Assembly: GCA_964434285.1 (NCBI GenBank)
Contig: CAYSUJ010000001.1
Location: 104,703 to 168,702 of the forward strand
Reading direction: 5' to 3'
Length of the DNA stretch: 64,000 bases
Source: an uncultured Candidatus Saccharibacteria bacterium
GTDB taxonomy: Bacteria; Patescibacteriota; Minisyncoccia; Phycocordibacterales; UBA2100
Shown: piece by piece, positions 22,045 through 63,490 of the stretch
Numbering within the stretch: position 1 is the first letter of the stretch
How the letters are laid out: the number at the start of each line of letters is the position of its first letter
The notes under the pieces: model-generated
Databases searched by the model: none
Seen by the model: only the letters and a program-made list of their open reading frames with translations
What the model was told of the DNA's origin: nothing
Made by a program: the position numbers and the translations under genes

Positions 22045-22190
22045 TGTGGATAAGAGAGCCCGGGTTCCCGAGAGCATCACTTCGCACAATATATCTTTTG
22101 CGAAGTATACTTAGGGCTTTCGCCCTACATATACTTACGCAAAAGATTGGCAACATTGTGCGAACCCTTGGCTCGCACAATGTTGCCCTC
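22045..22190. repeat. Cluster of three hairpins plus a consensus DnaA box in a 200-nt non-coding gap
   Basis: TGTGGATAA at 22045-22053. CTTCGCA/TGCGAAG hairpin. TAGGGC/GCCCTA hairpin flanked by 8-nt direct repeat TATACTTA. 15-bp perfect stem GGCAACATTGTGCGA/TCGCACAATGTTGCC. Confidence 0.5.
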
Positions 22191-26639: not shown

Positions 26640-27755
26640 CTAGGCGCTTTTGCGCACGTGGCGAGAGATGTTTAAAAGTAACCCGGCAGACGCAAGTGAG
26701 ACGAGCATGGCGCTTCCGCCCTGGCTGATAAAAGTCAGCGGAATTCCCGTGAGCGGCATGAGGCCAAGCATGGCGGCAATATTGATAAAGGCTTCGCCAA
26801 CGAGATATGTGGAAATGCCCACCGCGAGAAGTGCCCCGAAAAGATCTGGTGAGCGGGCGGCGATGCTATAGCCGCGCACGGCAAAAAGGAGGAATAGTGC
26901 CACAACAAACACGGCGCCCACAAAACCAAGCTCTTCCGCAATAACCGCAAAAATCGAGTCACCCATCGGCTCGGGAAGATACGTAAACTTCTGCAGGCTT
27001 TGTCCGAGTCCCACGCCTGTCGCCCCCCCTGCCCCGATCGCAATGAGGGATTGCTTTACTTGAAAGAGATCCCCGCGCTCGTCTTGTTGGTGAGGAAAAA
27101 GAAAGGTCTCAATGCGTTGATATACATACGCATAGCGTGGGGTGAAGGAAAGAATAACGAGTGTTGTTACACCAAGAAGCGCAAGAAGAGCAATGTAGCG
27201 AAAACGAAGACCCGCCGCGATCGCGACGGAAAAAATCGAAAAGATGACAATGCCGAGCGTGCCGAAGTCAGGCTGCATCGCGAGCAAGAGCCCCGGAGCG
27301 GCGATGAGGGCAAGAAACGCTGCAACACCCTTCCAGTCCTGAGCGTCGTCGCGCAGAAGTGCAAATACGCTTGCGGCCATGATAACGCCGGCAAGCTTCA
27401 AAAATTCTGAGGGCTGAACGGTAGTAATGCCGAGATCAAGCCAGCGCCGTCCTCCTCCATGCTCGAATCCAAGGCCGGGCACAAAAACGAGCGCTGTGCC
27501 GATGAGGCCGAGAGCATAAATGTACGGCGCATAGGTGCGCCAGATTTTATAATCGACAAAGTACATCACTAGTGCCCCGACGAGCCCGAGGCCAACCCCG
27601 AGCGCGAGGTGGCTAAACATGACCGATGAAATGTGCGAGCCGCCGCGAGCAAGAAGTCCAACTGCGGCCGACGAAAACATGAGAGCTCCACCTAAGACGA
27701 GGGCGCCGAGGAGTCCGATCAAAATAGCGTCTGCCCTACCAAGAGAGAGTCGCAT
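26640..27755 (-). CDS. ftsW: SEDS family peptidoglycan polymerase FtsW/RodA
   Basis: 10-TM SEDS fold. Conserved C-terminal LTGIPLTFISQGGSAMLVSLASAGLLLNISR. ATG chosen at 27753-27755 (MRLSLGRADAILIGL). The ORF-track start uses an upstream GTG. Confidence 0.85.
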   Translation of the reverse strand: MRLSLGRADAILIGLLGALVLGGALMFSSAAVGLLARGGSHISSVMFSHLALGVGLGLVGALVMYFVDYKIWRTYAPYIYALGLIGTALVFVPGLGFEHGGGRRWLDLGITTVQPSEFLKLAGVIMAASVFALLRDDAQDWKGVAAFLALIAAPGLLLAMQPDFGTLGIVIFSIFSVAIAAGLRFRYIALLALLGVTTLVILSFTPRYAYVYQRIETFLFPHQQDERGDLFQVKQSLIAIGAGGATGVGLGQSLQKFTYLPEPMGDSIFAVIAEELGFVGAVFVVALFLLFAVRGYSIAARSPDLFGALLAVGISTYLVGEAFINIAAMLGLMPLTGIPLTFISQGGSAMLVSLASAGLLLNISRHVRKSA

Positions 27756-27869
27756 ACCCCTACACCAATACAGACATCGCACCTACGCTGCGAGTCCGTA
27801 TATTACTTTGTAATGAGGCTCTTTCACGTGCTGTTTGAAAGCAGTGTGTGTATTGGTGTAGGGGCATAC
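27753..27869 (-). promoter_or_regulatory. 16-bp perfect inverted repeat (CCCCTACACCAATACA / TGTATTGGTGTAGGGG) bracketing the mraY-ftsW intergenic region
   Basis: Left arm 27757-27772 sits 1 nt from the ftsW start codon (27753-27755) and contains its GGGG/GGUG SD. Right arm 27849-27864 abuts the mraY stop (27869-27871). Confidence 0.6.
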
Positions 27870-28912
27870 TATTTTCCCGAAAGCGCGATGATAACGCCGA
27901 GGAATGCAAAGACGATTGCCAAGACCCAGTAACGCATAACCACTTTTTCAGGAGTCCACCCGATCGCCTCAAAATGATGGTGGAGGGGTGCAATACGGAA
28001 GAGTTTTCTCCCGAACCAATACTTCCAAAACATCTGCAGTATGTCGGAAGCAACGGTGATCACGAGAAGGAATCCGATGATGGGAAGTACAGCGACGCCG
28101 ATGCCGCCGCCGAGCTCATCCGTCATAAATGCAATAGTGGGTATCGCGAGCGTGAGCGCCATAGAACCCGTATCTGACATATAAAAGCGCGCGGGCGGGA
28201 TATTGAACCAAAGAAACGCGAGGAGGCCACCGCAAAGGGCGGCGCAAAATGCGGCGAGGTCAATCTGGTTCTGTGAAAATGCGATGATTGCGTAGGAAGC
28301 AAATATGGCGAGAAAGACTCCTCCAGAAAGGCCGTCGAGACCGTCAATGACGCCGCTTGCATAGAGTGCGAGCGAGGTGAGAATGAAGAACGGCACGATG
28401 AGAAATCCGATCTGAAGTAAGCCGTCGAATGGAAGTTGCACTGCAGTGACATCAAGCTTGTCGTAGAACCACCAGCCAATGAGGAATGAGAGGATGATAA
28501 CGATGAGGAGGCGGTAACGTAGCTTCAACCCCTCTCCTCCTGGTCGAATGACGAAAAGGTCATCAAGAAAACCCGCAAGTGCACCCACGAGAAGTGCTGA
28601 AAACGGCACCCAAGTCTGGCTGCGACTCAAGAAATCAAATGCCTCGAGACTCGGAAGAATAGTAAAAATTGCGGCGGTAAGAGCGACGCTGCCCCAAATG
28701 ATGATCCCACCAAACCGAGGCGTGTTTACCTCCCGCGTCTCGTGAAGCCGGTTGAATTCGCTTGCGTGTGTGCCGTCATAAGCCGTTTTGCCCGCCTTTT
28801 TCTTCCATGCTTTGAGAGAGTAGAGGTAATGCGTGAGAATCGGCGTCATCGCGATGCCAAGCACGAAGGCGAGGCCTGCAGGAAAAAGCACCCGTATAAC
28901 GTCGGGAAGCAT
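27869..28912 (-). CDS. mraY: Phospho-N-acetylmuramoyl-pentapeptide transferase
   Basis: MLPDVIRVLFPAGLAFVLGIAMTPILTHYLY... 10-TM MraY fold. Confidence 0.9.
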   Translation of the reverse strand: MLPDVIRVLFPAGLAFVLGIAMTPILTHYLYSLKAWKKKAGKTAYDGTHASEFNRLHETREVNTPRFGGIIIWGSVALTAAIFTILPSLEAFDFLSRSQTWVPFSALLVGALAGFLDDLFVIRPGGEGLKLRYRLLIVIILSFLIGWWFYDKLDVTAVQLPFDGLLQIGFLIVPFFILTSLALYASGVIDGLDGLSGGVFLAIFASYAIIAFSQNQIDLAAFCAALCGGLLAFLWFNIPPARFYMSDTGSMALTLAIPTIAFMTDELGGGIGVAVLPIIGFLLVITVASDILQMFWKYWFGRKLFRIAPLHHHFEAIGWTPEKVVMRYWVLAIVFAFLGVIIALSGK

Positions 28913-32555: not shown

Positions 32556-33548
32556 TTAGAGTGAGACCCCTACCCTAGCACGAACCTCCTTCATTTTGGA
32601 AGCAGCTCTTTCGCGTGCTTTTGCCGAGCCCTCATCGAGTACCTTTTTCACCTCGGCGTCCGTAATGGCATTGCGCTTCTCACGCATGGGCGCGATGAGT
32701 GATTCCAAATCTTCCACGAGTGTATCCTTGAGTGCCTTATACTTGCCCTTCTGGGCTTCGTAGAGCGGCGCGAGTTCCGCTTCGCTCTTAAGAAGCTTGT
32801 GAATGGCATACACGTGTTCGGGTTTATCCCCCGAGGAATCTGTGACAATGCTCATAACTGCCTTTGAGATTTCGTCCTTCGAGCCGAAGAGCGGGATGGT
32901 ATTGCCGTAGCTTTTCGACATCTTTTTGCCGTCGGTTCCCGGCACAATTGCCACTGATTTCTGAATGCGCTCTTTTGGCTCTTTCAGAGTCTCGCCATAT
33001 GCCTTGTTAAACTTCGCCGCCGCTTCGCGTGCGTATTCGAGGTGTTGACGCTGGTCTTCACCCACCGGCACAACATCGGTGTCGTAGAGCAAAATATCTG
33101 CCGCCATAAGCATGGGGTAATTGAAAAGCCCTGCAGTTGCCTCTATTCCCTTCGCCACCTTGTCTTTGTAGGCATGGCCCAGCTCGAGGAATGAGACCGA
33201 AACGAGACACTCGAGAATCCAAGCGAGCTCGGTATGCTCCTGCACTTGCGACTGCTGGAAGATGATTGCTTTGGAGGGGTCGACGCCAATAGCGAGGTAG
33301 TCGCGCACGACATTCTTGATGTTCTCGCGAAGCTCGTCGCCATTTCGAAGCGAAGTGAGCGCGTGGTAATCGACAACCATCAAGTAGCTCTCATAGTCGG
33401 CATACATTTCAGCAAACGGCTTCAGTGCACCGAAGTAGTTTCCGATATGTAGCGCGCCAGATGGCTGGAGACCTGTCAACAATCGCTGCACCCCGTTAGA
33501 AATAGGGCGCGGACTTTCGGATGTATCTTGAACATCGTTTGCGCTCAT
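32556..33548 (-). CDS. trpS: Tryptophanyl-tRNA synthetase
   Basis: TGLQPSGALHIGNYFGA (HIGH) and KKMSKSYGN (KMSKS) motifs. Confidence 0.92.
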   Translation of the reverse strand: MSANDVQDTSESPRPISNGVQRLLTGLQPSGALHIGNYFGALKPFAEMYADYESYLMVVDYHALTSLRNGDELRENIKNVVRDYLAIGVDPSKAIIFQQSQVQEHTELAWILECLVSVSFLELGHAYKDKVAKGIEATAGLFNYPMLMAADILLYDTDVVPVGEDQRQHLEYAREAAAKFNKAYGETLKEPKERIQKSVAIVPGTDGKKMSKSYGNTIPLFGSKDEISKAVMSIVTDSSGDKPEHVYAIHKLLKSEAELAPLYEAQKGKYKALKDTLVEDLESLIAPMREKRNAITDAEVKKVLDEGSAKARERAASKMKEVRARVGVSL

Positions 33549-33565
33549 ACGTTGTTTGTGTTGGA

Positions 33566-33611
33566 AAGCAAAAATGTGTTATGCGTCCGTTATTTCTAAC
33601 GGGGTGCATAA
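33566..33611 (-). terminator. Interrupted hairpin plus U-tract downstream of rlmB
   Basis: Minus strand: UUAUGC-acc-CCGUUA-gaaa-UAACGG-ac-GCAUAA then CACAUUUUUGC. Confidence 0.45.
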
Positions 33612-40761: not shown

Positions 40762-40784
40762 TTGGCAAGGTCTGACCTTGCCAA
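40762..40784. repeat. REP-like perfect palindrome TTGGCAAGGTCtGACCTTGCCAA (copy 1)
   Basis: 23-nt palindrome immediately downstream of the RAYT stop and ~50 nt upstream of the dnaK start. Confidence 0.7.
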
Positions 40785-40793
40785 ACCGCTATC

Positions 40794-41504
40794 TCACCCC
40801 AGCCAAAGCTCTTTAGAGAGCTTTTTTTCAAGACTACCCTCCGCAACTTCCTGCGCAAACTCTCGAAATCCCTGACGATCACCAAAAATTTCTCGAAGAA
40901 GATCGCTATCAAGGAGTCCGGAGGCCCGCGCACCTGTGTACGAGCCAAGACTTGAAAAAGGATCTTGAAGTGCCCAGTCAAACGCATTATCAAACTCATT
41001 CATCGCCTTACGATAACCACCTGGGTATCGTTCCAGCGGGTTCTTGACTTGAATATACGCCGCAAGATATTCAAGATATTCATCTGAATCCACGGTGCGC
41101 GATCGATATGCGCCCTGAAAGATGGTGCCGCGCTCATTGTATTTCGTATTGAAGTACATAGACATGCTTGTGCAAAGTTTTTGCATAAATTTGCTGACAC
41201 CCCCTTCGCGAGTCTCTTGCACCAGCAGATGAAAATGGTTATCCATAAGGCAATACGCAAGTATGGCGGTATAAGGCTTTTGTTCCCCCCAAGAATCCGG
41301 GCGCTTAAAACCCTCTCTTATATGCTGGGGGGTAATATCTCGGTCCCAATGTTGAGGAGCGTTTTCGTCGTTCAGATAACGTAAGAGACGTAGAAAGCGC
41401 CATTTATCGGATTCATCACGAACGATGTTCATACCTCGCGCACCGCGCTTAACGATGTGTACATATGAACCCACGGTAAATGGCTCCTTCCTCATTTGAC
41501 GCAT
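40794..41504 (-). CDS. REP-associated tyrosine transposase (RAYT; IS200/IS605-like Y1 HUH transposase)
   Basis: HUH motif YCLMDNHFHLLVQE. Catalytic Tyr region EYLAAYIQVKNPLE. Perfect SD AAGGAG 6 nt upstream of the ATG at 41502-41504. Flanked by inverted copies of the same palindrome. Confidence 0.75.
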   Translation of the reverse strand: MRQMRKEPFTVGSYVHIVKRGARGMNIVRDESDKWRFLRLLRYLNDENAPQHWDRDITPQHIREGFKRPDSWGEQKPYTAILAYCLMDNHFHLLVQETREGGVSKFMQKLCTSMSMYFNTKYNERGTIFQGAYRSRTVDSDEYLEYLAAYIQVKNPLERYPGGYRKAMNEFDNAFDWALQDPFSSLGSYTGARASGLLDSDLLREIFGDRQGFREFAQEVAEGSLEKKLSKELWLG

Positions 41505-41523: not shown

Positions 41524-41546
41524 TTGGCAAGGTCAGACCTTGCCAA
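41524..41546. repeat. REP-like perfect palindrome TTGGCAAGGTCaGACCTTGCCAA (copy 2)
   Basis: Same palindrome as copy 1 in inverted orientation. Confidence 0.7.
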
Positions 41547-63444: not shown

Positions 63445-63490
63445 AAGAGGTCGTGCGCACCGCCCCCCCCAGCGCACGACCTCTTTTATT
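63445..63490 (+). terminator. Strong hairpin (AAGAGGTCGTGCGC-13 nt C-rich loop-GCGCACGACCTCTT) plus TTTTATTT, 29 nt upstream of the yqeY start
   Basis: 14-bp perfect stem then T-run on the + strand. No upstream + strand CDS, so it is an orphan sRNA terminator or a leader attenuator. Confidence 0.5.

Follow-up and report, generated by a model that had tools for sequence, protein, structure and literature searches.

A probable miniature transposable element at the ftsW start codon in a Patescibacteria-like genome

The inverted repeat between mraY and ftsW

We analyzed a 64-kb stretch of contig CAYSUJ010000001.1 (in the following "the window"), in which a long perfect inverted repeat lies between an mraY-like gene and ftsW. 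Copy counts for the arms of this and similar repeats refer to the window. Both genes are located on the minus strand. The mraY-like gene (27869..28912) matches the Pfam GT4 family, and its best NCBIfam match is mraY with a score below the cutoff; it ends with a TAG stop codon at 27871-27869. The downstream gene ftsW (26640..27755) encodes a SEDS protein of the FtsW/RodA/SpoVE family with 371 aa when counted from the ATG at 27755, and is followed on the minus strand by murG. A previous description of the locus, made from the letters alone (the sequence-only reading), had placed the ftsW start 1 nt after the downstream arm of the repeat. This is the ATG at 27755-27753. An independent gene call selected the same codon, and it is the aligned start in all orthologues.

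The two arms of the repeat, CCCCTACACCAATACA (27757..27772) and TGTATTGGTGTAGGGG (27849..27864) on the plus strand, are exact reverse complements over 16 bp at the coordinates previously given for them, the second being the upstream arm on the mRNA. When up to three mismatches were allowed, the 16-mer was found at two sites in the window, which are the arms themselves, while two or more arm matches occurred in none of 100 dinucleotide shuffles of the window. As described before, the repeat frames the whole mraY-ftsW intergenic region, and a Shine-Dalgarno-like GGUG in the downstream arm lies about 7 nt from the ftsW AUG. The upstream arm had been said to begin right after the mraY stop codon; this has to be corrected, as 4 nt (UAUG) intervene.

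We then folded the minus-strand RNA of positions 27740-27880. The predicted structure has a free energy of -57.2 kcal/mol with both arms paired (z = -6.4; none of 200 shuffles was equally stable). For the 16-bp duplex alone we calculated -28.2 kcal/mol, in line with the earlier estimate of roughly -25 kcal/mol, and a 21-bp stem that includes G.U pairs from the flanking GUAUGC reaches -36.3 kcal/mol. A small hairpin that had been proposed in the loop as GCUG-UUUGAAA-CAGC is present, however in the minimum free energy structure it takes the form CACUGCU-UUCAAAC-AGCA(C)GUG. The stem had further been suggested to occlude the start of ftsW for the purpose of regulation. Its strength and the burial of the start codon are borne out in silico, with a mean unpaired probability of the start region (-14..+5) of 0.014 vs 0.38 in a relative without the repeat (L003). 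The regulatory purpose could not be upheld, for reasons given below.

Searching the region against Rfam 15 at permissive thresholds returned no match at the gathering score of a family, the best score being 24.9 bits for a miRNA hairpin model with a cutoff of 100. No promoter-like site was detected in a promoter scan of the region. In the terminator scan the arms did not form a terminator-like site, the stem being followed by UAUGCGACUCUC and not constituting an intrinsic terminator; one weak internal hairpin was listed on the minus strand (27793-27777).

Insertions at the start codons of ftsW and trpS

Directly outside the two arms the plus strand reads ...CATA / CCCC...GGGG / CATA..., which corresponds to a TATG on either side on the mRNA strand. 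The copy on the ftsW side (27753..27756, minus strand) contains the ATG of ftsW at 27755-27753. The copy on the side of the mraY stop codon (27865..27868, minus strand) contains a second ATG at 27867-27865, which represents the displaced ancestral start context. If the 108 nt from arm to arm (27757..27864) and one TATG are removed from the window, the predicted junction is AAAATAGTATGCGACTC, in which the mraY stop codon, one base and the ftsW ATG follow each other.

In order to compare this prediction with related genomes we used six orthologous junctions from three related lineages, which had been fetched via FtsW matches. FtsW identity to the window is 98% for L003 and L004, 93% for L005-L007 and 88% for L008, and nucleotide identity ranges from about 90 to 78% (BLAST). 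In all six loci the mraY stop codon is followed by 1 nt and the ftsW ATG (…AAAATAGTATGCGAC…). The nucleotide sequences of L003 and L004 are exactly the predicted empty site and align with the window leaving a clean gap of 112 nt: these nearest relatives read GGGAAAATAGTATGCGACTC, which equals the window sequence minus 112 nt, and the empty site is continuous (...AATAGTATGCGAC...). The additional 112 nt in the window thus consist of the 108-nt segment and the second TATG. BLAST alignments of the relatives against the window stop at 27757 and 27864. An in-frame GTG at 27782 falls within the inserted DNA.

We refer to the 108-nt segment as element 1. It is shorter than 500 bp, its terminal repeats are perfect (16/16) and so is the flanking duplication (4/4), and related genomes have an empty site at the same position. 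The predicted fold contains three internal hairpins. An open reading frame (ORF) of the size of a transposase gene is missing; the sole ORF within the element has 35 codons and reads through it (see below). Taken together these features point to the terminal inverted repeats of a non-autonomous miniature inverted-repeat transposable element (MITE) that inserted at a TATG overlapping the ftsW start, a reading to which we assign a probability of roughly 85%. The repeat frames everything between the two genes, since this spacer is itself the inserted DNA, as the comparison with the empty sites shows. Since arms and duplication are perfect, the insertion appears to be young. From the comparison with the nearest relatives carrying the empty site (about 88-90% nucleotide identity to the window) it post-dates a split at roughly species level.

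A second candidate, element 2, lies 5.6 kb from element 1 on the start codon of trpS (identified by TIGR00233 with 275 bits, above cutoff). It comprises 114 nt (33491..33604) with 14-nt ends CCCCGTTAGAAATA/TATTTCTAACGGGG and is flanked by the duplication TGCA (33487-33490 and 33605-33608). Alignment with L003 and L008 shows an empty site in both. The insertion changed the ancestral A-TGCA-GCG at trpS into ...GGGG-TGCA-GCG, so that the last G of the element and the TG of the duplication form a GTG (33491-33489) in the old trpS frame. An ATG inside the element (33548) is likewise in the trpS frame and was chosen by the gene caller, giving 330 aa compared to 311 aa in L003. A start at 33548 would add an N-terminal extension of 19 residues (MSANDVQDTSESPRPISNG). 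Elements 1 and 2 share the CCCC/GGGG termini, the inner arm (C/A)AATA, the size and the 4-bp duplication, and they differ in the arm core and in the interior. A scan of the window for perfect inverted repeats revealed no further element of this architecture.

Related elements and the mobilising enzyme

Scanning for both ends of element 1 yielded one locus in the genome collection (L002), 19 matches in metagenomes and no match in viral contigs. We assessed the background of such scans: in ordinary sequence about 1.8e-4 of all 11-mers have a perfect reverse-complement partner at a distance of 62-92 nt. At terabase scale tens of unrelated repeat pairs are therefore to be expected, and the number of matches proves nothing. 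After this background had been measured, the idea that all 19 metagenome matches represent one family was dropped. Two groups of matches may be unrelated to element 1, namely those in which the repeat extends further outwards (L010, L011, L015, L018, L021, L022) and those that flank RayT genes (L014, L019, L023, L025); these groups carry no weight in our argument.

More specific evidence comes from the ends themselves. The repeat starts exactly at CCCC in L024, L027, L009, L016 and in three copies in L020. Copies that both begin with CCCC(T/C)ACACCA and are flanked by 4-bp direct repeats are those of L024 and L027 (TATA in each) and of L020 (TCAA and CAAG); the targets GTATAC of L024 and L027 resemble the target GTATGC in the window. 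Identical flanking 4-mers were found for 9 of 33 repeat pairs headed by CCCC vs 1 of 104 pairs for 12 control heads of 4 nt. Furthermore, arms of the sister type seen in element 2 (type 2, CCCCGTTAGAAA/CCCCGTTACAAG) with the duplications TGAA, TAAA and CTTA occur in L013/L017 and L020, for which only type-1 ends had served as the query. By our own arithmetic a type-2 11-mer is expected about 0.05 times by chance in the roughly 110 kb concerned. In L020, three copies of type 1 and one of type 2 share a single contig. On this evidence both end types co-occur in three or more lineages, and the class of elements is real.

Several observations weigh against reading element 1 as a member of a mobile family. 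The window contains a single copy with these exact arms. Element 1 is found in only one other assembly, L001, which shows 100% identity with the window across 16,776 nt and is not independent. The interiors of the copies found in the scans are mutually unrelated. A share of the 19 metagenome matches, and possibly the single match in the genome collection, may be unrelated repeats. Finally, an autonomous element with matching ends was found neither in the window nor in the 36 loci.

The transposase, presumably supplied in trans, would make a staggered cut of 4 bp. It is probably of the DDE type, which is favoured because the duplicated 4-mers differ between copies. IS1380-type elements have CC ends and duplications of 4-5 bp. 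An insertion sequence (IS) of the rve type in L020 was considered as partner and rejected on account of its wrong ends (TGT...ACA); its duplication has about 7 bp.

RayT-like genes occur in several of these sequences. In the window a RayT-like Y1 (IS200-like) gene at 40794-41504 on the minus strand sits between grpE and dnaK. Two copies of the perfect palindrome TTGGCAAGGTC-N-GACCTTGCCAA are located on either side of it at 40762-40784 and 41524-41546 and nowhere else in the window. The RayT-like gene in L027 has the same layout with a different palindrome. The region 4549-5405 of L019 (the same as 9897-10753 in L028) comprises a RayT-family gene, which matches NF047646 with E = 1e-16 (below the cutoff), together with four surrounding repeat units that start with TGGTGTAGGGG. 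The 20 kb of flanking sequence contain no further unit.

As an alternative, the elements might be REPIN-like or IS200/IS605-type hairpin elements moved by an HUH (Y1) transposase such as a RayT-like protein, in which case TATG would consist of a target tetranucleotide and a cleavage site borne by the element instead of a true duplication. Like REP sequences and REPINs the elements are short hairpin-forming repeats, the arms of element 1 contain GTAG, which is a hallmark of REP sequences, and the window does encode a Y1_Tnp/RayT-like protein. In addition, the RayT-family gene of L019/L028 lies amid four arms carrying TGGTGTAGGGG, and in L027 a RayT-like gene is located 170 nt from the element. 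However, the RayT-like gene of the window is bracketed by its own unrelated palindrome and not by element arms, as is the gene in L027 (CCATAGGCAATTCCTATGG), and the motif is missing around RayT homologues that are 45-48% identical to the protein of L019; the match in L019 may be a chance overlap. Moreover, the duplicated 4-mers vary between copies (CATA, TATA, TCAA, CAAG, TGCA, TGAA, TAAA), which is the pattern of a staggered cut and of genuine duplications, whereas Y1 transposases of the IS200/IS605 type insert without target duplication. Because of the separate flanking palindromes, the distant homologues lacking the motif and the varying 4-mers we rejected RayT as mobiliser and consider this alternative quite unlikely.

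Among the loci from the scans we noticed minimal elements of both types with 29-62 nt (L020 1304-1333, 2854-2915 and 3730-3760; L013 9379-9407). They consist of two arms and a short loop with the 4-bp duplications CTTA, TCAA, CAAG and TGAA, and are unusually small for mobile elements. L011 (60-310) and L022 (4180-4312) contain tandem arrays with periods of about 49 and 46 nt, in which a longer unit containing TGGTGTAGGGG is followed by a small hairpin. These arrays are REP-like and probably unrelated to the element in the window.

Two loci contain tRNA genes between the arms. In L002 (181-400; the same locus in L012, L013, L017 and L026) an intact tRNA-Arg(CCT) with an Rfam score of 52 bits fills the space from CCCCTACACCAAT to ATTGGTGTAGGGG exactly. 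ARAGORN calls a second tRNA-Arg(CCT) if the sequences on both sides of this unit are joined and an insert of 20-25 nt in the D-loop is removed. One tRNA gene thus lies within the T-loop of another, degenerate one that has the same identity; there is no duplication. In L009 (2167-2324) a tRNA-Thr(TGT) with 69 bits in Rfam lies between arms of the CCCC type (TCCCCCACCTTCT/AGAAGGTGGGGGA). Outside these arms the sequence appears similar to the 5' part of a diverged tRNA-Thr on one side and to its 3' part on the other. For the window ARAGORN reported no tRNA genes, and element 1 is without a recognisable tRNA. A likeness of CCCCTAC-A-CCA to the 3' end of a tRNA was considered and found no support.

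Regulation, translation and comparison with known systems

The sequence-only reading had suggested that the repeat serves post-transcriptional control of the SEDS polymerase within a dcw-like operon. An evolved cis-regulatory RNA hairpin of this kind would gate ftsW and be opened by temperature, a protein, a small RNA or an RNase, and the strong stem that sequesters an SD-like GGUG together with the AUG fits such a function. However, none of the relatives examined has the hairpin, not even the one whose FtsW is 98% identical. A target-site duplication flanks it, a similarly built element is located at the unrelated gene trpS, Rfam holds no match to it, and perfect arms (16/16) are more readily explained by a young insertion than by an RNA structure under maintenance. 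The sequence-only reading had itself named the absence of the repeat from related genomes as evidence against control, and this is what the comparison revealed in 6 of 6 orthologous junctions. Compensatory covariation is not possible because no orthologous copies exist. We regard an evolved switch as very unlikely, although domestication secondary to insertion is possible. The repeat bears the signatures of a transposon insertion, and any effect on ftsW would be a by-product of that insertion. On the sequence evidence the feature is best described as an ordinary insertion of selfish DNA with possible side-effects on the translation of ftsW, and not as a conserved regulatory switch. Replacing a dedicated FtsW riboregulator with a transposon insertion prevents its mis-annotation as regulatory RNA.

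Least likely of all is that the element was ancestral at the junction and precisely lost in the relatives, or that it is an assembly artefact: a single strain carries it and the second assembly is identical to the window, but three successively more distant lineages with a clean 1-nt junction would need independent precise losses, the 4-bp duplication is the footprint of a gain, and an artefact would not make a duplication, recur at trpS with different arms or match elements in unrelated metagenomes.

Returning to the insertion of a MITE, we assessed what it would mean for the translation of the two genes. The duplication contains an ATG, so that an intact start of ftsW remains immediately behind the element. 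The end of the element supplies the purine stretch GGUG/GGGG upstream of this ATG, and the two ends are predicted to pair in the mRNA and to bury the start. From the other, duplicated ATG an upstream ORF (uORF1, MPLHQYTHCFQTARERASLQSNIRTRSVGAMSVLV; 27760..27867, minus strand, 35 codons) runs through the element to a TAG (27762-27760), which lies in the downstream arm and precedes the ATG of ftsW by 4 nt. Its ATG at 27867 is still located 1 nt after the mraY stop codon, behind the ancestral upstream context. At trpS the ancestral ATG (33609-33607) likewise opens a reading frame of 37 codons (uORF2, 33496..33609, minus strand) that ends with a TAA (33498-33496) in the downstream arm, 4 nt before the GTG at 33491-33489. 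In a null model with shuffled interiors and a random frame, a uORF stopping at this distance from the start is obtained with probabilities of about 0.09 and 0.08 for the two elements and of about 0.007 for both together.

Ribosomes that end at mraY, or restart 1 nt later at the displaced start, would translate uORF1 through the element and thereby melt the stem. At the UAG, which precedes the AUG of ftsW by 4 nt, they would terminate and then re-initiate. Based on the reading frames and the folding, expression of ftsW, which is presumed to be essential, and of trpS is most likely kept by such translational coupling, and only insertions that permit coupling would have survived in these genes. 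Speaking against this step, a ribosome parked on the mraY stop codon raised the accessibility of the start to 0.20 only in a crude model.

Translational coupling by melting of a hairpin or by termination and re-initiation is known from bacterial operons and RNA phages. As in these cases, a stem that a ribosome translating upstream would have to open encloses the downstream start, and the upstream stop codon lies a few nt away from it. In contrast to them, the arrangement described here would have been created in one step by a transposon that duplicated the start codon, as judged from the sequence only. The ATG is retained in the duplication, and a rescue of expression by ribosome coupling is compatible with the reading frames, with the same pattern at trpS. 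The locus provides a natural example of a streamlined, gene-dense genome that tolerates mobile DNA at the very start codon of a gene for cell division.

A definition of prokaryotic MITEs is available, which covers "type II" elements that are conserved only in their terminal repeats (PMC10969869). The elements described here correspond most closely to this type, and they agree with prokaryotic MITEs in being shorter than 500 bp, in having terminal repeats within the range of 4-30 bp and in the flanking direct repeats of young copies; they also share the intergenic location, very stable predicted stem-loops in the transcript and the missing transposase gene (PMC10969869). They differ from described MITEs in their ends (5'-CCCCTACACCA... 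and, for the sister type, 5'-CCCCGTTAGAAA...), in their host, which resembles Patescibacteria of the candidate phyla radiation (CPR), and in having no known parent IS. We searched the literature on MITEs, Patescibacteria/CPR and related terms and did not find a description of this family, of comparable elements in these bacteria or of a coupling between MITEs and start codons; coverage of this search was incomplete.

In its effects element 1 would most resemble, by analogy, the Correia elements (CREE/NEMIS) of Neisseria, whose two ends pair to a duplex within the mRNA and whose repeats are cleaved by RNase III, with altered expression as a consequence (PMC10969869). Both have a size of about 100-150 bp and long terminal repeats, are located beside genes and are co-transcribed with them. 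Correia elements are restricted to Neisseria and feature a TA duplication, repeats of about 26 bp, a conserved interior, promoters and an IHF site. Element 1 in contrast has a 4-bp duplication, other repeats, no promoter-like site and a Patescibacteria-like host, and is not a member of this group.

A broader reading would place the two elements of the window in an undescribed superfamily with 29-114 nt, CCCC...GGGG ends and 4-bp duplications that circulates in Patescibacteria-like genomes. Its members would land on the start codons of essential genes, or at most a few bases away, and would survive there through a built-in cassette for re-coupling, a stop codon that their own ends place 4 nt ahead of a usable start. 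They could also carry an intact tRNA gene between their arms while residing in a degenerate gene for the same tRNA; the L002 group would be the example for tRNA-Arg(CCT) and L009 probably the one for tRNA-Thr. We consider this rather unlikely. To our knowledge small mobile elements have scarcely been described in CPR bacteria, and the end motifs reported here can be used for a census of them. The elements would gain in interest if the targeting of start codons with re-coupling, or the copies carrying tRNAs, prove general.

Two further perfect hairpins were noticed in the window at 22149-22187 and 63445-63485, with arms of 15 and 14 bp and a total length of 39 and 41 nt, respectively. A homologous hairpin is present in L003 (15578-15617), and the two hairpins of the window may be terminators.

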